A stretch of DNA of 64,000 nt from Patescibacteria group bacterium (lineage in GTDB: Bacteria; Patescibacteriota; Patescibacteriia; UM-FILTER-42-10), in contig JBAYGW010000003.1 in assembly GCA_041666485.1 (NCBI GenBank), forward strand, positions 16,415 through 80,414, written 5' to 3'. A model generated the notes under the pieces. That model was not told the origin of the DNA, searched no databases, and was given only the letters and a program-made list of their open reading frames with translations. Of the stretch, positions 3,329 through 56,923 are shown in pieces; within the stretch, counting starts at the first letter, position 1, and each line of letters opens with the position of its first letter. The translations under genes and the position numbers were made by a program.

Positions 3329-4819
3329 CTATTTCCTAATTTTCTCCGTCACATTAAATCCCATGTATTTACCCAGCATCAGCCGGGTCTGAGCATCAAT
3401 CGCTGGAATTGATCCGAAAAAGATCATTGTTACCGGAAAGAGTACCCATTGTAACAGCATTTCAACAAATTTAATCTTATGTTTTTGCTCGGGCCTTTTA
3501 GGCAGCAATGTCGTACTGAAAACTGCCATCAAAATCAGGCCGATCATTGCCGCGCTCATCAGCCACTCCAATACATAAGGCGCGGTTTGTGCGGCGATTG
3601 ATGAAGACTCCTGGTATCTGGCAACCGCAAGCGGTAGTCTACCTAAGATAAATATCAAAATCGGAGCTGTGGCCCAGGAATAATGTCCCTCCGCCATGTT
3701 CCACACGTAGTGAAATTTTTGTCGCCATTTAATTTTCTTATTTTTTTTGAAAAACCAAAGCATATACGGAAAATGCTCAATACCGTATGCCCAGCGCCTT
3801 TGCTGTTTATATTGATTTTTTAAACTTTGCCACAGGGTGCTGCCCATAACCGTATCCATGGAAACCGGTATGTACATAGGCGTCACAGTATAATCTCCGT
3901 CATATTCCAGAAAACACTGCAGAAATATTCTGGAATCCTCAGTGACAATATCGTTCTGCCAGAAATCAATATCCACCAGTGCGCGGAAACTCATACTGTG
4001 TGATGAAAATGTAAATAATCTTTCCGGCCGTAACTGTTCGGTCATCAACCAGAATGTCGTGCCATTTGCCACCACCCGCATCAGTGCCGGCGAATCCCAG
4101 ATATTATTATTGAACAGAGGCACGGGCTGGAAACTGGTTTTGGTCGGATTCGGATGGTTAAGATACATGTTCGTCAAATACGCAAAATATTCGCTGTGCA
4201 CGCATGTATCAACATCAAACGAGGATACGATAACGTTTTCGTACGGAATATTTTGGCTGTCAATATATTCCTTTGTTTTTCTACCAGCCCAGGCGATATT
4301 TGAACCTTTCCCGGGCATTTCTCCCGGAATATTCGCCGGGTGTTCCACCACCAGCAGTTTATGAAACTTATCACCGAATTCTCTTTGCATAATTTCCGCA
4401 ATACCGCTCGCTCTTTCCCTATCCCGCTCCTCAATCGCAAACGTAACAATAAATTTGTCCTTCGGATAATTGGAATTTACTAAGCTCTGGAATGTTGATC
4501 TTATTACTTCAATCGGCTCTTTATATGTCGGCAACATAATAAAATGATACATGTCCTGCCAACGGGAATTTTTCCTGCATTCTTCCAACCAATTTACCTT
4601 GATCGCTCTTTTGAAACGGCGATACGAGATGATCATATACAACTGTAAATACAGTATGCGCATCAGCCACAGTAGATCAAAGACAATAATAAAATATATC
4701 ACCCAGATCGGCTGGAAAAATGACAGTGAAATTGCGGCAATAAAAGTAGTCCAGGTCAGCGCACCCGGGATTATTTCCAGAATTCTATATTTACGATAAT
4801 CAGACAGTTTATTAAACAT
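3329..4819 (-). CDS. membrane-bound family 2 glycosyltransferase (processive synthase-like)
   Basis: 496-aa ORF with N- and C-terminal TM helices, an FDVD (DxD) motif and a QQRRW (QxxRW) motif. Confidence 0.75.
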   Translation of the reverse strand: MFNKLSDYRKYRILEIIPGALTWTTFIAAISLSFFQPIWVIYFIIVFDLLWLMRILYLQLYMIISYRRFKRAIKVNWLEECRKNSRWQDMYHFIMLPTYKEPIEVIRSTFQSLVNSNYPKDKFIVTFAIEERDRERASGIAEIMQREFGDKFHKLLVVEHPANIPGEMPGKGSNIAWAGRKTKEYIDSQNIPYENVIVSSFDVDTCVHSEYFAYLTNMYLNHPNPTKTSFQPVPLFNNNIWDSPALMRVVANGTTFWLMTEQLRPERLFTFSSHSMSFRALVDIDFWQNDIVTEDSRIFLQCFLEYDGDYTVTPMYIPVSMDTVMGSTLWQSLKNQYKQQRRWAYGIEHFPYMLWFFKKNKKIKWRQKFHYVWNMAEGHYSWATAPILIFILGRLPLAVARYQESSSIAAQTAPYVLEWLMSAAMIGLILMAVFSTTLLPKRPEQKHKIKFVEMLLQWVLFPVTMIFFGSIPAIDAQTRLMLGKYMGFNVTEKIRK

Positions 4820-5678
4820 ATAGTTTTTGGCATTTAGGACAAAAGGTTGTACCGCGGTTACTCACTTTGGTCCTGGACAGTTTAGTGTCACAGCGGAAAC
4901 AATTTTGTCCGCTACGCTTATATACTTTTCTCACGTTCTGGTAATTACCTTTTCTACCGAGCGCATCACGGTAATCTGATATGGATGTACCACGATACTT
5001 TACCGCCTTTTTCAGTATTTTAACAATAGCTGAATGGATGGCTTTGCTTTGTCTTACATTCAGACTGTCCGTTTTCTGTTTAGGATTGATCTTCGCTTCC
5101 CATAAAATCTCATCTGCATATATATTCCCGATTCCTGATACAAAATGCTGATCCAGTAAAATAGATTTAATAAAACCTTTTTTATTTTGGAGCCTTGATT
5201 TAAATACACTGTATGTAAACTCACGACTCAGCGGTTCCGGACCGAGTTTTTTCAGCCGCGGCATATCATTCTCTTCACTTGTTTTAAAAAGCTTAATCTC
5301 GCCAAATCTCCTCACATCCGAAAAAGCCAGCTCTTTATTATCATCCAAATAAAAGCGGGTGCGTATAAACTGATTAAAGGAATCGTAAAATGGACTGTCT
5401 TTTCCCTCTTTATTCTTCCAGTCATGATCACGATAAAGCAAATGACCGGTCATTTTTAAATGAATAAGTAATGTTTGATTACCTGTCAGATCAATCAGAA
5501 TATTTTTTGCCCGCCTTCTAACACCGGTCACTTTCCTGCCGACAATACCTTTCCTGACTTTCAAAACAGAAGGATGAAAGCTCTTCGGCCAATCAGTCCA
5601 AATCTTTTGAACAGTATGTCCTTTCAATTTTACATTTAAATCAGAAACAATTGTTTGTACTTCGGGCAGCTCCGGCAT
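4812..5678 (-). CDS. mutM: formamidopyrimidine-DNA glycosylase
   Basis: Starts MPELPEV and has a C-terminal CxxC...CxxC zinc finger (CFRCDTKL...FCPKCQ). Confidence 0.9.
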   Translation of the reverse strand: MPELPEVQTIVSDLNVKLKGHTVQKIWTDWPKSFHPSVLKVRKGIVGRKVTGVRRRAKNILIDLTGNQTLLIHLKMTGHLLYRDHDWKNKEGKDSPFYDSFNQFIRTRFYLDDNKELAFSDVRRFGEIKLFKTSEENDMPRLKKLGPEPLSREFTYSVFKSRLQNKKGFIKSILLDQHFVSGIGNIYADEILWEAKINPKQKTDSLNVRQSKAIHSAIVKILKKAVKYRGTSISDYRDALGRKGNYQNVRKVYKRSGQNCFRCDTKLSRTKVSNRGTTFCPKCQKLYV

Positions 5679-9956: not shown

Positions 9957-10307
9957 TTAATGAATATGTTGATCTAAATGATTATCCAGCATTTCAACCT
10001 GTTCTTTGTCACTGATCTCAAGCATATAGCAAACGCACTTGCCCATTTTATACTTAGTTACAATCCGGGAGCGCTCTAGCATACTTAGCTGGTGCGACAC
10101 TGCGCTGATACTGATACCGAGCACAGCAGCGATATCTGAAACACAGATCTCTTCATAATGTTTTAATAACAGCAATATTTTTATCCTGGTCGGATCAGAC
10201 AAAACATTGCATAGATCACTTTGGATTTTTATGTGTTTACCGTTTCTTTTCAGCCAATTCTGATTTTTTAATATTTGCTTTTGCGTTAACATACTACGTT
10301 TTATCAT
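9957..10307 (-). CDS. ArsR/SmtB family transcriptional regulator
   Basis: LSDPTRIKILLLL and CVSDIAAVLGISISAVSHQL wHTH motifs. Confidence 0.9.
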   Translation of the reverse strand: MIKRSMLTQKQILKNQNWLKRNGKHIKIQSDLCNVLSDPTRIKILLLLKHYEEICVSDIAAVLGISISAVSHQLSMLERSRIVTKYKMGKCVCYMLEISDKEQVEMLDNHLDQHIH

Positions 10308-10440
10308 TTGCTCAAGTGTCTTAATGATATAGCAATTTGTTACCGCCTGTCAAGTCGGGTCACAACTCCTCATAAAGCCAATCTTGACAATAACGTACTT
10401 TTGTATTACTTTCTTTGTATGTTGATCTTTGAAACAACGA

Positions 10441-10575
10441 TGTAGGTGGGAGGACCGCCGTACCAAAAAGCAAGCAGTAATGCTACCCGCTGGGTGACAT
10501 TGACTGACGGGATTCGTCTCGTCCGTGGGCAGATGTTGCCCTCTGGGATGCTAAAGTGCGCGTCCTCCCACCCCA
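10441..10575 (+). promoter_or_regulatory. structured G+C-rich leader RNA domain, class unknown
   Basis: An 11-bp perfect long-range helix (GGTGGGAGGAC 10445-10455 with GTCCTCCCACC 10562-10572) extends by 3 bp. It encloses an AGCA-GTAA-TGCT GNRA hairpin, a GACG-GATT-CGTC hairpin and a GGGCA-n5-TGCCC hairpin. Confidence 0.4.
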
Positions 10576-10760
10576 CTTTCTTCTACAAATTGCTTTGTGC
10601 GGACGCTTAAGTCCGTTTGTGATAGTCACCCCACAACCCGATCCTACAGGGAGGTACGCCAAATGTACTCGTGGAGTTACGCACGCCACGGGTTCGGTTG
10701 ACCTGCGATCTTCTCCGTCTGAGTAGTCAATGCCCACGACTCAAAATGAGGAGATCTCGC

Positions 10761-11126
10761 ATGTGCGACAAGACCCAATGGAACGCGGGGCACGTCCTCG
10801 TCGTCCAGACCGTGTTCCCGACCGACAGCGAATCCCCCGGCGGTTTCTCGCGCAGCGTCATGTTGTGCACCTGTGGGAGCTGCCTGAGCTCCAACAACCC
10901 GATGACGCCCGCAGGGCCCCTGCACAGCTACCTGAAACGGTGCTTTGAGCAGGACGCTGCTGATGCGGTGGCGGGGGGCCTTGAGCCGCCCGTCAACCTC
11001 CTGAGCATGCCGAAGCTTGACCCGCGCACCGGCGCCGAGAAGCCGACCAAGAAGCAGGCAGCCATGCTGATCAAGCAGATCGGTCCGGACGCCTTCGCTT
11101 CCGACATCGTCGCGGCCTACGCCTAG
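10761..11126 (+). CDS. hypothetical protein (121 aa) in a G+C-rich cassette
   Basis: ATG is preceded by GAGGAG at 7-nt spacing, codons are GC3-rich, and a strong terminator follows. No family recognised. Confidence 0.5.
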   Translation: MCDKTQWNAGHVLVVQTVFPTDSESPGGFSRSVMLCTCGSCLSSNNPMTPAGPLHSYLKRCFEQDAADAVAGGLEPPVNLLSMPKLDPRTGAEKPTKKQAAMLIKQIGPDAFASDIVAAYA

Positions 11127-11159
11127 CGTAGGAGAAGAAGTACATCGTTGAAGGACATC

Positions 11160-11190
11160 GGGCGAATCCACTGGATTCGCCCATTTTTTT
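11160..11190 (+). terminator. intrinsic terminator
   Basis: GGGCGAATCCA-C-TGGATTCGCCC perfect hairpin followed by ATTTTTTT. Confidence 0.85.
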
Positions 11191-11276
11191 ATTATGAATA
11201 TTGACAGAAGAAGTGGAATACAATACCATTGTTAACGCCCGCTGATTGTAAGACATCCTTCATGGAGGAGGTGGAC

Positions 11277-11573
11277 ATGTCCCAAAGTCGGCTGGTGATG
11301 TTCTTAATGCTCTTTCTCGGACTGACTCTCTCTCCCCTGTTTCTTGTCGTTGCGGCGGTTATGTTCCTTGCTCCCTCGGAGCCGAAGCTCATCCCCCGGG
11401 ATGATGAAGGGAGACGTTGCTGTCCCGTCTGCCACTCCAGACACTATCTCATCTTCCCGACTCGGCAGAAGAGCTACTTCGGCCATTCCTGGATTTCAGC
11501 ATTTTGCAGAAACCAAATGGAATACCGCTACCAGGACTGCACAATGAGCTGGAAAGAATCCGGGGACGGCTAA
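11277..11573 (+). CDS. hypothetical small Cys-rich membrane-anchored protein (98 aa) in a G+C-rich cassette
   Basis: GGAGGAGG SD 5 nt before the ATG, an N-terminal TM helix (LVMFLMLFLGLTLSPLFLVVAAVMFL), and a CCPVC plus further Cys residues. Confidence 0.5.
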   Translation: MSQSRLVMFLMLFLGLTLSPLFLVVAAVMFLAPSEPKLIPRDDEGRRCCPVCHSRHYLIFPTRQKSYFGHSWISAFCRNQMEYRYQDCTMSWKESGDG

Positions 11574-11576
11574 ACC

Positions 11577-11604
11577 GCGTTGATGTTCTATCAGCGCTTT
11601 TTTT
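11577..11604 (+). terminator. intrinsic terminator
   Basis: GCGTTGAT...ATCAGCGC hairpin (one G-T pair) followed by TTTTTTT. Confidence 0.6.
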
Positions 11605-11623
11605 ATATATTTATTTGACGTTA

Positions 11624-11959
11624 CTATCTGAAGATTTTAGACAGAAACCAGTTTACAATAGCCAGTACAATACCAAACAGCAATGCCCACCAAAAGCTTG
11701 CTATGGAAAATCCCGGAACAATTAACGCCATCAGCATAACCAATAATGCGTTAATCACCAGCGTAAACAAGCCAAGCGTCAGAATATTGATCGGCAGAGT
11801 AAAAATTACTAAAACAGGTTTGATAAATATATTAATCAGACCCAATACCAACGCCCCGACAAAAGCGACAAAAAAACCATCAACCGCTACGCCCGGTAGC
11901 AGATAGGCTGTGATCAGGATTGCGACCGTTGAAATTAGCCATTTAATAAGGATTTTCAT
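11624..11959 (-). CDS. phage holin family 4 / YvlD-like membrane protein
   Basis: 111-aa, 4-TM ORF; ITAYLLPGV and PINILTLGLFTLVINAL resemble the Phage_holin_4_2 family. Confidence 0.75.
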   Translation of the reverse strand: MKILIKWLISTVAILITAYLLPGVAVDGFFVAFVGALVLGLINIFIKPVLVIFTLPINILTLGLFTLVINALLVMLMALIVPGFSIASFWWALLFGIVLAIVNWFLSKIFR

Positions 11960-22907: not shown

Positions 22908-24497
22908 CTAGTGCCAGAACATCCGGCGATCGGTAAAGAGCATCGCGATGCCCAGTTTGTCCGCGGACCTGATTGAATCCTGGTCGCGAATTGAACCGCC
23001 CTGCTGGACGATCGTCTTGACGCCGAACGTGTCCGCCAGGCGCACGCAGTCGTCAAACGGGAAGAAGCTGTCGGACACCAGCACAGCATGGTGCAGATCC
23101 ATATTCTGCGCCTCCATGTTGTTCATGGCCTGCTCCAGAGCAAGCCGTGCCGACTTGATCCGGCTGGTCTGGCCGTTGCCGATGCCGATCGTCTGCCCGT
23201 TCCAGACCACGATGACCGAGTTGGACTTGACGTGCTTTGACACATTGCAGCCGAAACTGATATCCGACCAGTAGCGGTCCTTGACACCGAGCTTGGTGAC
23301 GCACCGGAACGACCTGCAGTCAAACAGCTCGGTGTCCATCAGCTGGACCACCATGCCGCCGGTCACCGGCTTGAAGTTCAGCGTGCCGAACGGCATGCTG
23401 CAGGAAAGCTCCCCACCCAGTTTGAACAGCGGGGTCTCTGCCCTGGCGCGCTTCTTGGTGATGTGTTCCATCGCCTCCGGCGAAAAATCCAGCGCGACGA
23501 TCGCGTCCACCTTCTGCACGCAGATGGTTTCAGCGACTTCCTCCGTCACCTGGAAGTTGAGTACCACCACCCCGCCGAAAGCCGATTCCGGATCGCACGC
23601 CAGTGCGTTCTGGAAAGCCTTCAGCGGACTGAAGCTGTCCATCGCCACTCCGCACGGCGTACCATGCTTGATGATCGCGACTGCGAATTCCGGGGACAGG
23701 TCGCGGACCGTCTCAATGCCGGCATTGATATCCAGCACAGTGGTGGCCGAGAGCGGCTTGCCCCAGATCTGCTTGGCGTTTGCCGCGGTGTAGCAGTTCA
23801 GACCCGGCAGTTCGTAGAACGCACCCGGCTGATGCGGATTCTCACCGTAGCGCAGATCACACTTCTTCTGCAGACGCTGAACCATCCGATCCGGGAAGCT
23901 GGGGAACTCAAGGCGTTCAGCCAGCCAGTCGGAGATCGTGGCGTCATACCACGCAGTGTGAAGAAACGCCTTGTAAGCCAGTTGCAGACGTTCCAGCGCG
24001 TTGAACCCGACATCTTCCGAAAGACACCGAATCACAAAGCCGTACTGCTCTGGTGAAGTGACCACCAGCACATGGCTGTGATTCTTCGCGGCCGCGCGGA
24101 TCAGTGCCACGCCGCCGATATCAATCTGCTCAATCGCGTCCCGAAATGCCACGGTCCGATCAGCCACCGTCTCTTCAAACGGATACAGGTTGACCACGAC
24201 CATGTCAAACGGGTAGATGCTGTGATCAAACAGCTCCTGCATGTGCGCGTCGCTGTCCTGATCCGCCAGGATCCCGCCGTGGATCTTCGGATGCAGAGTC
24301 TTCACCCTGCCACCCAGAATTTCCGGGAAACCGGTCACCTCCTCTACCGTTCGCACGGGAATTCCGGCTTCCACCAGGTGTCTGGACGTTCCGCCGGAAG
24401 ATACAATCTCCCAGCCATGTTCAAACAGCACGGTGGCAAGCTCAACAATGCCGCGCTTGTCGGACACGCTGATCAGAGCGCGCTGATTTGCTCGCAT
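22908..24497 (-). CDS. purH: bifunctional AICAR transformylase / IMP cyclohydrolase
   Basis: ALISVSDK, GGRVKTLHPKIHGGIL, GENPHQ and QQGGSIRD motifs. Start set at MRANQ, preceded by AAAGGAGC. Strongly G+C-rich relative to its flanks. Confidence 0.93.
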   Translation of the reverse strand: MRANQRALISVSDKRGIVELATVLFEHGWEIVSSGGTSRHLVEAGIPVRTVEEVTGFPEILGGRVKTLHPKIHGGILADQDSDAHMQELFDHSIYPFDMVVVNLYPFEETVADRTVAFRDAIEQIDIGGVALIRAAAKNHSHVLVVTSPEQYGFVIRCLSEDVGFNALERLQLAYKAFLHTAWYDATISDWLAERLEFPSFPDRMVQRLQKKCDLRYGENPHQPGAFYELPGLNCYTAANAKQIWGKPLSATTVLDINAGIETVRDLSPEFAVAIIKHGTPCGVAMDSFSPLKAFQNALACDPESAFGGVVVLNFQVTEEVAETICVQKVDAIVALDFSPEAMEHITKKRARAETPLFKLGGELSCSMPFGTLNFKPVTGGMVVQLMDTELFDCRSFRCVTKLGVKDRYWSDISFGCNVSKHVKSNSVIVVWNGQTIGIGNGQTSRIKSARLALEQAMNNMEAQNMDLHHAVLVSDSFFPFDDCVRLADTFGVKTIVQQGGSIRDQDSIRSADKLGIAMLFTDRRMFWH

Positions 24498-24563
24498 TTC
24501 TGCTCCTTTCGTGGCAAACCGTGAAGCTTTCACCGCAAACAACCGTTTGGGAAACGGTTTTTT

Positions 24564-55653: not shown

Positions 55654-55810
55654 ACCGTCTTATTGTACCAAATATCAATGTTTCTGGCGACTTGTCATTA
55701 CAGTCACGTAGCAACCCTGACTTGCCAGAGTAAATGAAATATGGTAAAAACAAAACTGTGCCCATCTTCAGGGCGCAAATGACCAAAACCCGTTTTTGGG
55801 AGGTATTGGT

Positions 55811-56923
55811 ATGGACCAACGATTTGTCGATCTGGCGAGAGTCATGGTCGGCCATTCCACAAGGGTCTCAAAGGACGATATCGTCATCGTCAAGAGCACG
55901 GAGGTAGTGCCGCCCGACATGATCTTCGCGGTGATCCAGACCGTGCGCGAAGCGGGGGGCTCCGTGATCCCCTGGCGCTACGATCCGCGCATTGACTTCG
56001 AGGCATTCAGGGGTGGCACCGCTCACCAGCTGCGTGCCTGGGGCGCCGGCCAGTTTACCCAACTGGCTGCCGCCAACTGCTTCATTGAGTTCCGGCCGTT
56101 CAGTAACCAGCTCGACGGCAACGACGTGCCGGCAGCGGACATGCAGCGCCACGGCGAGGTGTTCGTTCCGCTGACGGTTGAACAGCGCGTGGAACGCACC
56201 CGCTGGGTGCTGACCCGCTGGCCGACGCCGGCCAACGCCCAGTTGGCCGGGATGTCCACGACGCAGTTCGAAGAGTTCTTCTTCAAGGCATGCCTCGCCG
56301 ACTACGGCGCCATGGCCAAGGCCGTGAAGCCGCTCGTCGCCCTGATGGAGCGGACCGACCAGGTCCAGATCCAAGGGCCGGGCGACACCGATCTCACTTT
56401 CAGCATCAAGGGAATTCCGATCATCGCCTGTACCGGATCGCACAACATCCCCGACGGCGAAGTGTTCACGGCGCCGGTTCGCGATTCCATGAACGGCGTG
56501 ATCGCCTACAACACCCCCACGGTCAACTCCCGCGGCCAGCGGTTCACCAATCTCCGCTTCGTGGTCAAGGCGGGCAAGATCGTGGAGGCGACCTGCGAGA
56601 CGGGTGACCAGACGGCGCTGGACGCCTTCCTGGACACCGACGAGGGTGCCCGCTACTTCGGCGAATTCGCCCTCGGCATCAACAACTTCGTCACGGGTGT
56701 GATCGGCGAAACGCTGTTCGACGAGAAGGTCGGTGGAAGCCTCCACTTGACGCCCGGCCGGTGCTATGAGCAAGCGCCGAACGGGAACCAGTCGGCCAAC
56801 CACTGGGACATCGTCTGCGATCAGCGCGGGGCTTCCGGTGGTGGGGAGATCTACTTCGACGGCAAGCTGGTCCGCAGCAAAGGGCTTTTCATCCCGAAGA
56901 GCCTCCACGCGCTCAATCCCTGA
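55811..56923 (+). CDS. M29 family aminopeptidase (AmpS/PepS-like)
   Basis: 370-aa ORF; NIPDGEVFTAP and HWDIV motifs of thermophilic metalloprotease M29. GGGAGG SD. Strongly G+C-rich. Confidence 0.82.
   Translation: MDQRFVDLARVMVGHSTRVSKDDIVIVKSTEVVPPDMIFAVIQTVREAGGSVIPWRYDPRIDFEAFRGGTAHQLRAWGAGQFTQLAAANCFIEFRPFSNQLDGNDVPAADMQRHGEVFVPLTVEQRVERTRWVLTRWPTPANAQLAGMSTTQFEEFFFKACLADYGAMAKAVKPLVALMERTDQVQIQGPGDTDLTFSIKGIPIIACTGSHNIPDGEVFTAPVRDSMNGVIAYNTPTVNSRGQRFTNLRFVVKAGKIVEATCETGDQTALDAFLDTDEGARYFGEFALGINNFVTGVIGETLFDEKVGGSLHLTPGRCYEQAPNGNQSANHWDIVCDQRGASGGGEIYFDGKLVRSKGLFIPKSLHALNP

Follow-up and report, generated by a model that had tools for sequence, protein, structure and literature searches.

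A candidate translational control leader upstream of a cysteine-motif protein gene in Patescibacteria

Comparative analysis revealed a conserved, structured leader RNA between a divergent arsR gene and the gene for a 121-aa protein (ORF1) in the window, the whole 64,000-nt stretch of a Patescibacteria (CPR) MAG that was analysed. The leader is most likely a new translational control element and, as far as the few available sequences tell, represents a new family within a known kind of RNA. We consider, with a probability of roughly 0.55, that a multilayer leader keeps translation of ORF1 off by default in a structured mRNA of about 770 nt, and that this leader is part of a small uncatalogued RNA family confined to Patescibacteria. 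Literature searches turned up no account of such an RNA.

The locus and its transcript

The gene order arsR, leader, ORF1, ORF2 was found in at least seven lineages; related loci are designated below by numbers (L001, L004 and so on). The features that frame the leader in the window are as follows.

9957-10307, minus strand: divergent ArsR/SmtB-family regulator gene, matching PF01022 and NF033788
10353-10324, minus strand: arsR promoter, with 11 of 12 consensus positions matched
10384-10389, plus strand: -35 element TTGACA, kept in every lineage examined
10407-10412, plus strand: -10 element TACTTT, with TAnnnT 17 nt downstream of TTGACA in each lineage
10761-11126, plus strand: ORF1, 121 aa, with a conserved Cys2 and a C-x-C-x2-C motif, open with the same start in all lineages
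11160-11190, plus strand: intrinsic terminator of the ORF1 transcript, a 10-bp stem (11160-11182) followed by a T-run
11201-11229, plus strand: ORF2's own promoter
11268-11573, plus strand: ORF2, encoding a small membrane-anchored Cys-rich protein, found after ORF1 in most lineages
11577-11597, plus strand: ORF2's own terminator

The initial annotation had described TTGACA at 10384 as accompanied by only a weak -10. The hexamer is indeed conserved and the -10 is too weak for detection by a consensus promoter scan, but TAnnnT is kept at the 17-nt spacing, the spacer being constant in length and variable in sequence among lineages. Transcription probably starts at about 10419-10421, and the mRNA would be monocistronic and about 770 nt long (~10419-11190). 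The textbook terminator reported after the ORF was found with its 10-bp stem and T-run, and the stem GGGCGAG...CUCGCCC is kept in 7/7 lineages. No plus-strand terminator was found by scan between the large structured domain of the leader (domain 1, below) and ORF1, and the P6 hairpin located there has no U-run. Within 10440-11190 the minus strand gave no promoter-like site in a scan that would miss weak or non-sigma-70 promoters.

In every locus with enough flank, arsR lies directly upstream of the leader, and in all fetched loci the leader and ORF1 occupy a fixed position between arsR and either ORF2 or a holin-family gene. ArsR, thioredoxin, glutaredoxin and DsbD are among the products of neighbouring genes across loci. 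The window and each fetched locus contain one copy of the leader, which is always accompanied by ORF1, with no separate copy in any of them; a MITE or small mobile cassette was rejected on this single copy number and fixed synteny. Two exact-pattern scans of genome and metagenome collections brought up the known loci and nothing else, bar one chance match; the 19-mer match in L007, a Bdellovibrionales MAG, was set down to chance, this locus being recognised by neither nhmmer nor the covariance model (CM). Two leader patterns searched in a viral contig collection gave no match, and a phage origin was discarded on this result and on the lack of PHROG, PADLOC or BFVD relatives of ORF1 and ORF2. 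The available leaders comprise only 7-8 distinct sequences from one narrow clade.

ORF1 had been called an orphan of no recognisable family. The reading frame at 10761-11126 is real (dN/dS of 0.25-0.33), and it is not an orphan, having homologues in about eight protein clusters. The family did prove unrecognisable: AlphaFold2 modelled a compact alpha/beta protein (mean pLDDT 93), and no relatives were found in Pfam, NCBIfam, PHROG, PADLOC, BFVD or the PDB. The sequence has no evident transmembrane segment. Homologues that could be placed by source label or gene context come from Patescibacteria-type settings, with one labelled Micrarchaeota. The GC3 of ORF1 is 0.88 versus 0.3-0.5 in the neighbouring genes, and it remains high in lineages only 40-50% identical in protein; the coding sequence is also more structured than its synonymous shuffles in 3/5 lineages.

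Conserved fold of the leader

The 5' part of the leader forms a compact domain, whose elements, all on the plus strand, were defined by CM alignment and a hand table.

10445-10572, plus strand: domain 1, a 128-nt multi-helix domain
10445-10455 with 10562-10572, and 10457-58 with 10560-61, plus strand: P1, the closing helix, 13 bp
10469-72 with 10549-52, plus strand: helix P2
10473-84, plus strand: P2a, a GNRA hairpin with loop GUAA, GAAA or GACA across lineages
10486-88 with 10545-47, plus strand: helix P3
10492-501 with 10532-41, plus strand: helix P4
10506-23, plus strand: P5, the tip hairpin with a UUCG loop
10525-31, plus strand: invariant internal loop GUGGGCA

Both the sequence itself and a repeat finder showed GGTGGGAGGAC (10445-10455) to be perfectly complementary to 10562-10572. 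The 11-bp long-range helix of the initial annotation is therefore present, and after a bulged C it gains the pairs 10457-58 with 10560-61 and, in the window, four further pairs. The GUAA tetraloop hairpin at 10473-10484 and the GGGCA/TGCCC complementarity at 10527-10541 were likewise recovered. The hairpin GACG-GATT-CGTC exists with its start at 10506 rather than 10507, and the comparative data favour the register GACGGGA(UUCG)UCUCGUC (10506-10523). L001 carries a 31-nt self-pairing insertion at the tip of P5. Invariant unpaired nucleotides are found in the internal loops and junctions of the domain.

The leader is 82-86% identical among the window, L001 and L004, the dS of the flanking genes being 1.1-3.5 and that of ORF1 0.38-0.58, below its neighbours'; the leader evolves 2-3 times more slowly even than ORF1's own dS. 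Independent MFE folds of five leaders contain the same helices, and all hand-defined helices pair in all five. The changes that the leader tolerates are only those neutral for its structure: two CM-based alignments had 94.3% and 94.7% of cells paired versus 37-56% in slid controls, and the one designated R1 (7 distinct sequences; 94.3% versus 47-56%) has five pairs changed on both sides. Compensatory changes occur in P1, P2a, P5, P7 and the helix that pairs with the Shine-Dalgarno (SD) sequence of ORF1. Covariation scores were above those of all 500 shuffles, a level that related sequences can reach without any structure; stricter measures, in which pairs or pair types were counted, were reached by 48-106 and 138-443 of 500 shuffles. 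Taken by themselves, the leader and the ORF had MFE z-scores of -3.15 and -1.65, against -9.97 for the entire transcript. Plus-strand CM scores were 122-159 bits versus 13-14 bits for the reverse strand, and the plus-strand fold contains many G-U pairs. The proposal of a structured leader RNA is thus borne out by a conserved plus-strand fold, by pairing kept across lineages and by the MFE z-score.

Two other origins of this conservation were rejected. A minus-strand RNA, such as an arsR 5' UTR, does not agree with the plus-strand G-U pairs, the low reverse-strand CM scores or the separate strong promoter of arsR at 10353-10324. A coding region or pseudogene was dismissed on the leader's ORFs, which have no Pfam match, and on the indels between lineages: the 31-nt insertion and others of 1-3 nt fall at structure-tolerant sites, which excludes a coding frame.

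Rfam searches of the whole window at the gathering threshold found only one tRNA, those of 10200-11700 at E ≤ 10 gave three chance-level matches with none in 10384-10760, and Rfam 15 matched no family in the homologous loci. ARAGORN detected neither a tmRNA nor a tRNA at the leader. The statement that the leader fits no known RNA class therefore holds at both Rfam thresholds. Nothing indicates a ribozyme, which had also been suggested, and a slight likeness to the 5' sequence of tmRNA and to the CUGANGA core of the hammerhead was discounted because Rfam and ARAGORN found nothing. A retron or DGR RNA, prompted by the end pairing described below and by the CPR context, was considered and set aside: no reverse transcriptase is located nearby, and ORF1 is not Avd-like.

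Upstream ORF, SD-masking hairpin and pairing of the mRNA ends

The remaining elements of the message, again all on the plus strand, are given in 5' to 3' order.

10426-10444, plus strand: 5' arm of the end pairing, consisting of UCUUU (10426-10430), a GAAA bulge and CAACGAUGUA (10435-10444)
10577-10584, plus strand: pyrimidine tract UUUCUUCU immediately 3' of P1, predicted to pair with the purine tract of the 3' UTR (helix H-C)
10599-10616, plus strand: P6, a variable hairpin GCGGAC(GCUUAA)GUCCGU, kept in place with unrelated sequences
10637-39 with 10649-51, plus strand: P7, covarying from C-G to U-A
10650-10655, plus strand: strong SD sequence GGAGGU of the upstream ORF
10653-57 with 10665-69, plus strand: P8, changing via G-U intermediates only
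10663-10701, plus strand: upstream ORF, with ATG at 10663, 12 codons (MYSWSYARHGFG) and TGA at 10699-10701, in 8/8 leaders
10668-74 with 10686-92, plus strand: P9, changing via G-U intermediates only
10707-10756, plus strand: P10, anti-SD GAUCUUCUC (10707-15) with GAGGAGAUC (10748-56), which contains the ORF1 SD
10725-28 with 10738-41, plus strand: P11, an inner helix AGUC/GACU
10731-37, plus strand: apical loop with invariant UGCCCAC
11133-11155, plus strand: 3'-UTR arm, consisting of the purine tract AGAAGAAG (11133-40), UACAUCGUUG (11141-50) and AAGGA (11151-55)

Of the two hairpins placed earlier in the middle of the leader, that at about 10600-10616 is P6 (10599-10616), with the counterparts GCGGGU/GCCCGC in L001, UACGCA/UGCGUA in L013 and L015 and, read by hand, GCGAUGG/CCGUCGC in L020; that at about 10661-10689 corresponds to a hairpin at 10668-10692. 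P7, P8 and P9 overlap the RBS and body of the upstream ORF, which is the only SD-preceded ORF common to 8/8 leaders. In all eight it has equal length, a UGA stop and an SD 8-9 nt upstream; its codons 1-4 and 10-12 are invariant and codons 5-9 variable. By hand tally the variable codons have no third-position bias, and the invariant parts overlap P8/P9, so the conservation could be a by-product of RNA structure. The upstream ORF is probably translated. The leader had been regarded as untranslated, which would still apply to the rest of it but probably not to this conserved 12-codon stretch. The peptide (MYSW..GFG) is unlike any arrest peptide known to us. In each of the lineages examined, 4-5 nt separate the UGA from the anti-SD that follows it.

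The ribosome-binding arrangement GAGGAG-N7-ATG (10748-10763) is present as annotated, and the palindrome noted over it (GAGATCTC, 10751-10758) is real, yet its palindromic character is not preserved among lineages; conservation at the RBS region concerns pairing with the upstream anti-SD. P10 is kept with different sequences, such as CAAUCUCU:AGAGGUUG in L013 and UUGAUC..CUC:GAG..GAUCAA in L023; 97-100% of its cells are paired, and in 2-3 pairs both partners have changed. These data support a conserved P10 helix that would sequester the ORF1 SD, and hence a cis-regulatory architecture. The apical loop UGCCCAC (10731-37) is the exact 7-nt complement of the internal loop GUGGGCA (10525-31) of domain 1, about 3.5 perfect 7-nt complements being expected by chance per 340-nt sequence, and both motifs are invariant in every sequence that covers them. 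The two loops are predicted, rather than proven, to pair.

The two ends of the message may also be joined. The repeat finder identified CAACGAUGUA (10435-10444) as a 10-nt perfect complement of 11141-11150 in the window, and CAACGAU(G) is kept in all leaders that have a 5' end. At the other end (R)AGAAG..CAUCGUUGA forms a conserved block in an otherwise variable 3' UTR in 5/7 lineages; the L014 3' UTR lacks the CAUCGUUG motif, and L019 and L023 have altered versions of it. The predicted pair probability of this closure is 0.9-1.0 in the window, L001, L004 and L020 and 0.05-0.48 in the L013 group, where the 5'-3' helix has only 7 bp. The outer extension covaries (UCUUU:AAGGA in the window, ACUUC:GAAGU in L015, AU:AU in L020); the cores of the 5'-3' helix and of the loop-loop pairing are invariant, so neither shows covariation. 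In the full-transcript MFE, 10577-10584 pairs with 11133-11140 in the window, and the equivalent tracts pair in L001 and L004; by hand, the tracts of L015 (UUCUCUU with AAGAGAA) differ yet are complementary, and those of L020 likewise. The evidence for H-C is moderate, because the tracts are of low complexity. The 3' UTR is thus predicted, although not proven, to pair on both sides of P1, which would create a three-way junction and tie the mRNA ends together. The full-length ensemble predicts that the upstream ORF and ORF1 each have an RBS that is for the most part paired. RNAduplex comparison of the 3' UTR with the leader was too permissive to inform, and a long-range pairing of 10417-10424 with 10672-10679 proposed by RNAalifold was rejected as unsupported by other lineages.

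Proposed control of ORF1 and competing explanations

In leader-ORF attenuation a short ORF with its own RBS abuts one strand of an RBS-masking helix, and such an ORF was found here, conserved in presence and position in 8/8 leaders. In the mechanism that we favour, ORF1 would be translated only when the anti-SD:SD helix is opened, and the likeliest opener would be a ribosome on the upstream ORF, whether it is translating, terminating or pausing. Given the short distance between the UGA stop and the anti-SD, a ribosome at the stop would extend over the lower half of the helix. Access to the partly paired RBS of the upstream ORF would be set by the large-domain fold together with the 5'-3' closure, and the fold could respond to a signal, be it a ligand, a protein or trimming of the 3' end. 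The divergent ArsR-type regulator probably controls transcription separately. A further and doubtful step would be to see here a new Patescibacteria-specific class, in which a signal-sensing 128-nt domain, clamped by paired mRNA ends, gates a leader-ORF-coupled SD switch and the GC-rich coding region takes part in the fold, giving a closed-loop dual-function RNA.

If the leader were a true riboswitch, domain 1 would be the aptamer for a small molecule or ion, ligand binding would be signalled to the SD hairpin, for instance by way of the loop-loop contact between GUGGGCA and UGCCCAC, and the upstream ORF would be incidental. We regard this as possible but unlikely. A conserved structured 5'-UTR domain with comparative support, large, multi-helical and with invariant unpaired nucleotides, is what a riboswitch would have; P10 with its compensatory changes would occlude the RBS and resembles an expression platform, and an invariant complementarity joins the two. 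The ArsR, thioredoxin, glutaredoxin and DsbD neighbourhood hints at a metal or a thiol-related compound as a possible ligand. However, similarity to Rfam riboswitches is lacking even at E ≤ 10, and the conserved upstream ORF and 5'-3' closure would be left unexplained. The leader always precedes a single protein family, without assigned function, in one clade, so gene association offers no clue to a ligand. The predicted pairing of the mRNA ends suits a ligand-free stored mRNA activated by processing, in which the 5'-3' interaction locks an inert full-length fold until RNase trimming of the 3' or 5' end frees the closure, the leader refolds and both ORFs become translatable. Type I toxin mRNAs are an established case of this principle (PMC6733600), and the conserved complementarity, with a predicted probability of about 1 in four lineages, the pairing predicted for both RBSs and the GC-rich coding sequence with its structure beyond synonymous shuffles in 3/5 lineages are consistent with it. 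Yet ORF1 encodes a soluble 121-aa protein and not a short hydrophobic toxin, and neither a promoter for an antisense transcript nor an antitoxin RNA was detected on the minus strand. In aapA the 3' UTR binds the SD directly, which is not the case here, and the closure is weak in the L013 group, its 3'-UTR motif being missing from L014 and changed in L019 and L023. We therefore hold a stored mRNA to be distinctly unlikely.

It is very improbable that the leader has no RNA-level function and that a horizontally acquired GC-rich cassette was conserved through recent transfer or through DNA features, such as ArsR operators, terminal inverted repeats of a mobile cassette or a decayed gene. Inverted repeats do flank the leader and ORF1, the window contains other GC-rich, acquired-looking islands (a purH-like gene at 22908-24542 and an M29 peptidase gene at 55796-56923), and the low dS of ORF1 means that a cassette could be younger than the lineages. 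But recent transfer does not explain a leader that changes 2-3 times more slowly than ORF1's own dS, by substitutions that are compensatory or pass through G-U and are strand-asymmetric, and by indels at structure-tolerant sites. The single copy in the same syntenic position in the window and all fetched loci also argues against it, as does the high GC3 at 40-50% protein identity, and no ORF1 homologue in any GC-rich donor was found among 1.84 billion representative proteins. An independent non-coding RNA, also raised in the initial annotation, would make domain 1 or the whole leader act in trans and merely lie upstream of ORF1. The domain is compact, self-contained and closed by a 13-bp helix, and its G+C content exceeds that of the genome, as is the case for stable RNAs in AT-rich genomes. 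Such an RNA is nevertheless hardly credible, because there is no terminator between domain and ORF1 and the 3' UTR of the ORF1 message is predicted to pair on either side of the domain; moreover, the leader was never found without ORF1.

To our knowledge, almost nothing is known of gene regulation in Patescibacteria. A recent perspective considered translational regulation likely to be key to their life cycle (PMC11665869). The locus offers a concrete, synthesisable candidate for an RNA-based control element native to this group, uniting in one message of about 770 nt a large conserved fold, a leader ORF, SD masking and predicted 5'-3' end pairing. If the proposed control of ORF1 holds, the leader would be a new family among structured cis-regulatory RNAs and a handle on a Cys-motif protein that has no detectable fold relatives and lies in a conserved ArsR/thiol-redox neighbourhood. 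If it responds to a ligand, it would be a new riboswitch class and possibly a native expression tool for Patescibacteria.

Several known systems share parts of this architecture. In Salmonella, the leaders of mgtA (with mgtL) and of mgtCBR contain both a structured sensor and a small regulatory reading frame, and they act mainly on transcription elongation and termination. Both they and the present leader have a 5' leader of several hundred nt with a short upstream ORF within alternative helices, and the downstream gene is set by ribosomes on the leader ORF and by the RNA fold, as we propose here. There is no sequence or Rfam similarity between them; the conserved output here is the anti-SD:SD helix with no leader terminator seen, and the 3'-UTR closure is a further difference. 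The erm and cat resistance genes have leaders of 100-150 nt that work by translational attenuation: ribosomes stalled by an antibiotic are the signal, and a ribosome positioned on the leader ORF melts the SD hairpin. These leaders too have a short ORF immediately upstream of a hairpin that masks the SD of the main gene, whereas the present leader includes a large upstream domain and ORF1 is not a recognisable resistance gene. In cobalamin-class riboswitches the aptamer contacts the expression platform via a loop-loop interaction. The multi-helix 5' domain followed by an RBS hairpin whose loop is complementary to a domain loop is similar here, but neither cobalamin nor other Rfam models match, and the loop-loop pairing is invariant and so has no covariation support.

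The hok/Sok and aapA/IsoA type I toxin mRNAs have a long-distance interaction between their 5' and 3' ends (PMC6733600). Conserved 5'-3' end pairing, predicted here, is shared with them, along with SD sequestration and a predicted inert full-length fold, and hok has in addition a coupled upstream reading frame such as we propose for this leader. Those mRNAs encode membrane-acting peptides of <60 aa and not a soluble product of 121 aa, and no antisense RNA gene was detected at the present locus. The 3' arm of the ORF1 message, unlike theirs, is predicted to pair beside the large domain and not with the SD.

Structure and strand of the leader RNA

The window has a G + C content of about 40% (0.41 overall), with a GC-rich block at roughly 10440-11600, and its proteins place it in a Patescibacteria (CPR) metagenome-assembled genome. 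The elements that the initial annotation had reported here, namely an 11-bp long-range helix, several hairpins, a 121-aa ORF (ORF1) with its Shine-Dalgarno sequence (SD) and a textbook terminator, were recovered, the long-range helix (P1) by inspection of the sequence and by a repeat finder. Beyond a one-base bulge P1 gains two further pairs, and in the window another four follow. A hairpin described as GACG-GATT-CGTC does exist, but it had been placed one base off, and the comparison of lineages favours GACGGGA[UUCG]UCUCGUC as its register.

Features of the leader, ORF1 and the 3′ UTR (window positions, read on the plus strand)
10435-10444: CAACGAUGUA, 5′ arm of the putative closure core, just 5′ of P1
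10445-10455 with 10562-10572: P1, 11 bp, perfect, closing Domain 1
10473-10484: GUAA hairpin
10506-10523: hairpin in the favoured register
10525-10531: invariant GUGGGCA
10527-10541: GGGCA/UGCCC complementarity
10577-10584: pyrimidine tract following P1
10599-10616 and 10668-10692: hairpins
10650-10655: SD of the upstream ORF, GGAGG(U)
10663: ATG of the upstream ORF, 7-8 nt downstream of its SD
10699-10701: TGA of the upstream ORF (12 codons, MYSWSYARHGFG in the window)
10707-10715 with 10748-10756: P10, anti-SD GAUCUUCUC with GAGGAGAUC, conserved, the latter including the ORF1 SD
10731-10737: invariant UGCCCAC
10761-11126: ORF1, preceded by GAGGAG-N7-ATG
11133-11140: purine tract AGAAGAAG
11141-11150: UACAUCGUUG, 3′ arm of the closure core, perfect complement of the 5′ arm
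11160-11182: terminator

Minimum free energies were below those of dinucleotide shuffles, with z = -9.97 for the predicted transcript as a whole, -3.15 for its leader and -1.65 for ORF1 alone. Independent folding of five leaders (homologous loci are designated L001, L004 and so on) gave identical helices. In a helix table compiled by hand (P1-P11), all helices were paired in every sequence with two exceptions, both in L001: a single A-C in P1, and a U-U ending the first P11 register, which was subsequently replaced by AGUC:GRCU. Compensatory changes were found in P1 (U-A to G-U; G-C to A-U), in P2a and P5 (one pair of each occurs as A-U, G-U or G-C, and a second pair of P5 as A-U, C-G or G-C) and in P7 (C-G to U-A). 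The entire P6 hairpin is swapped for unrelated sequences, P2 of L020 reads CAAA:UUUG versus AGCA:UGCU, and P10 retains pairing through re-registered sequences. The P2a tetraloop is invariably GNRA (GUAA, GAAA or GACA). A 31-nt insertion in L001 (5720-5760, aligned to about 10513 of the window) lies exactly at the P5 tip and forms a separate hairpin there, which is typical of expansion segments in structured RNAs.

Two covariance models were built, for Domain 1 (R1) and the 3′ domain (R2), and all sequences were realigned with them. Among seven distinct sequences for each, 94.3% (R1) and 94.7% (R2) of cells were paired, versus 47-56% and 37-50% when the 3′ partners were slid. The covariation scores were 0.175 (shuffled mean 0.118) and 0.248 (shuffled mean 0.167), both reached by 0 of 500 shuffles, in model-fitted alignments of related sequences; by two stricter measures based on counts the result was unexceptional, and earlier five-sequence alignments gave the same picture. 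On the opposite strand a number of the G-U pairs, both invariant and derived ones, would become A-C, and the covariance models score 13-14 bits on the reverse strand versus 122-159 bits on the plus strand; judged by sequence, the structured RNA is therefore the plus strand. We conclude that a functional plus-strand structured leader is very probable (about 0.85).

The initial annotation could not assign the leader to a known RNA class, and Rfam 15 gave no match at the gathering score or at E ≤ 10 for the region and its surroundings, nor for three homologous loci. ARAGORN found neither a tmRNA nor a tRNA-like gene in the region, and literature searches yielded no description of this RNA. The reading of the leader as one long coding frame is ruled out by the L001 insertion and by several indels of 1-3 nt among the leaders. 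At the predicted 5′ end of the transcript, an 8-codon ORF, ATGTTGATCTTTGAAACAACGATGTAG (10419-10445), was judged incidental from its sequence; it is unconserved, with ATA replacing ATG in L004 and read-through to 16 codons in L001.

Probable masking of the ORF1 SD and possible 5′-3′ closure

Both strands of P10 are changed but still pair in L013 (CAAUCUCU:AGAGGUUG) and L023 (UUGAUC..CUC:GAG..GAUCAA), and masking of the ORF1 SD by P10 is probable. At its apex this hairpin has AGUC:GRCU, a short helix that is conserved, and a loop with the invariant UGCCCAC. This is the exact complement of GUGGGCA, which the comparative model leaves unpaired as an internal loop within Domain 1, so a loop-loop or pseudoknot contact between Domain 1 and the SD hairpin is a candidate and a lead; both sides are invariant, so the pairing lacks covariation support, and about 3.5 perfect 7-mer complements per 340 nt are expected by chance.

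When eight leaders were scanned for SD-preceded ORFs, exactly one was common to all (8/8), with length, start, stop codon and SD identical in every lineage. Its stop lies 4-5 nt 5′ of the anti-SD in each lineage. A ribosome reaches about 16 nt beyond the first P-site base on the 3′ side, so one that terminates or pauses at this stop would cover the first five or so anti-SD bases and free the ORF1 ribosome-binding site. Codons 1-4 and 10-12 are nucleotide-invariant and overlap helices P8 and P9, and in the variable codons 5-9 the three positions change about equally, so that it is the existence of the ORF and not its peptide that is conserved; on this pattern the ORF could also have arisen incidentally from constraints on the RNA. 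Part of its own SD pairs within P7 and P8, and in the predicted full-length ensemble both SDs are mostly paired (unpaired probability 0.06-0.33 for the upstream ORF and 0.01-0.22 for ORF1). Coupling of the upstream ORF to ORF1 is accordingly proposed tentatively, at slightly less than even odds.

The two ends of the message are also complementary. The 3′ arm UACAUCGUUG follows the ORF1 stop codon and precedes the terminator. Every leader with an available 5′ end, a set without L014, L019 and L023, retains the 5′ motif CAACGAU(G). Within a 3′ UTR that otherwise varies, the 3′ motif CAUCGUUG forms the conserved block in the window, L001, L004, L015 and L006 (the lineage of L020); it is absent from L014 and altered in L019 and L023. 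The helix ends vary by lineage with complementarity retained: UCUUU:AAGGA with one U-G in the window, ACUUC:GAAGU in L015, and AUCAACGAUG:CAUCGUUGAU in L020, whose extension is on the same outer side. Directly 5′ of the 3′ arm, the purine tract pairs with the pyrimidine tract following P1, and the equivalent tracts of other lineages differ in sequence and still pair, by folding and by hand. Since the 3′ UTR pairs before and after P1, it would bridge both sides of that helix in a three-way junction. The core helix has a predicted probability of 0.9-1.0 in the window, L001, L004 and L020, and of 0.05-0.48 in the group of L013, L015 and L024 (7 bp). If the arms acted instead as DNA, as inverted operator sites or terminal repeats, they would hardly be expected to differ by a G-U-compatible change or to belong to a single-copy element at a fixed site, and this reading is less likely; 5′-3′ closure of the mRNA is marginally favoured overall.

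We class the leader as a structured cis-acting translational control leader. Transcription would start at a position-conserved promoter (TTGACA, 17 nt, TAnnnT), and control by ArsR is plausible because this promoter stands back to back with that of the divergent arsR gene. The mRNA fold would then mask the ORF1 SD, which would most plausibly be opened by ribosomes on the upstream ORF, whose initiation may be set by the state of the large domain together with end-to-end closure. The trigger could be a ligand, as in a riboswitch, a protein, or RNase trimming, for which the 5′-3′ locked hok and aapA toxin mRNAs offer a precedent (PMC6733600); that the domain is a ligand-sensing aptamer is unlikely. 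The leader resembles the erm and cat attenuators in its leader ORF and SD masking, the mgtA type in its long sensor with an upstream ORF, and hok and aapA in its locked message. It nevertheless belongs to none of these, as it has no Rfam membership, toxin-like ORF, detected antisense RNA or recognisable arrest peptide. The architecture is unusually elaborate, in a group whose gene regulation is almost unexplored (PMC11665869).

ORF1, its neighbourhood and distribution

ORF1 had been regarded as an orphan, but word-indexed and exhaustive HMMER searches of billions of proteins found homologues in about eight protein clusters; those with a named source are labelled Patescibacteria, and one Micrarchaeota. 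The latter, L015 (GCA_018813505.1, contig JAHJBM010000022.1, "Candidatus Micrarchaeota archaeon"), closely matches the Patescibacteria-labelled contigs L013 and L024-L027 in gene order and leader RNA; an error in binning or labelling probably explains the archaeal name. Homologous contigs carry a minus-strand ArsR/SmtB regulator, about 450-580 nt of non-coding sequence, ORF1, usually ORF2, and a Phage_holin_4_2-family gene. In several lineages a SEC-C-motif mini-protein, glutaredoxin, thioredoxin and DsbD are encoded beyond arsR, on its other side. Each locus has a single copy, and the window contains no second one. No further lineage came from exact-pattern scans of genome, metagenome and viral collections, so the leader family, known here from sequence alone, is tiny, rare and narrow.

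Family searches placed ORF1 in no sequence family, as the initial annotation had found. Its predicted structure, modelled from only eight sequences, is of high confidence (pLDDT 93.2, pTM 0.83). The homologues share Cys2 and a C-x-C-x2-C motif, and the proximity of genes for ArsR, thioredoxin, glutaredoxin and DsbD hints at a role in metal or thiol chemistry; a net charge of about -1, by our own count, does not suggest an RNA-binding autoregulator. ORF2 (11268-11573), downstream of ORF1 in most lineages, has its own promoter (TTGACA-17-TACCAT) and terminator within 11201-11597. Its product, without a match in family searches, has a hydrophobic segment at its N terminus and, after it, CCPVC...C-x9-C, a pattern that resembles a zinc ribbon.

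Constraint was compared among the window, L001 and L004. Flanking genes (arsR, FMN reductase, holin-family and a 64-aa protein) have an effectively saturated dS of 1.1-3.5, and that of ORF1 is 2-4 times lower (0.38-0.58). With a dN/dS of 0.25-0.33 and the same start codon everywhere, ORF1 is, by its sequence, a real gene under purifying selection. The leaders are 82-86% identical and evolve 2-3 times more slowly even with ORF1 dS as the neutral yardstick. ORF1 GC3 is 0.61-0.88 in all lineages, even between those with 40-50% protein identity, versus 0.27-0.54 in neighbouring genes; this and the low dS are atypical of the genome. Against synonymous-codon shuffles, the ORF1 coding RNA has extra stability in L001, L004 and L015 (z -2.9 to -4.1), whereas the window and L020 show no such excess (z -1.3 and -0.6); selection on the coding RNA itself is suggested.

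In L020 (1.18-Mb contig), a phage-integrase-family gene (4276-5088) lies just past the holin-family gene beside the cassette; the corresponding position of the window shows none. In the short metagenome scaffold L023 (1-240), GC-rich sequence resembling an FG-GAP/VCBS-repeat protein is fused directly to the P1 3′ strand and Domain 1 is missing, probably by chimeric assembly and not as a natural variant. Two further GC-rich islands in the window, a purH-like AICARFT/IMPCHase gene (22908-24542, minus strand; GC 0.59, GC3 0.76) and an M29 aminopeptidase gene (55796-56923, plus strand; GC 0.63, GC3 0.84), look horizontally acquired.
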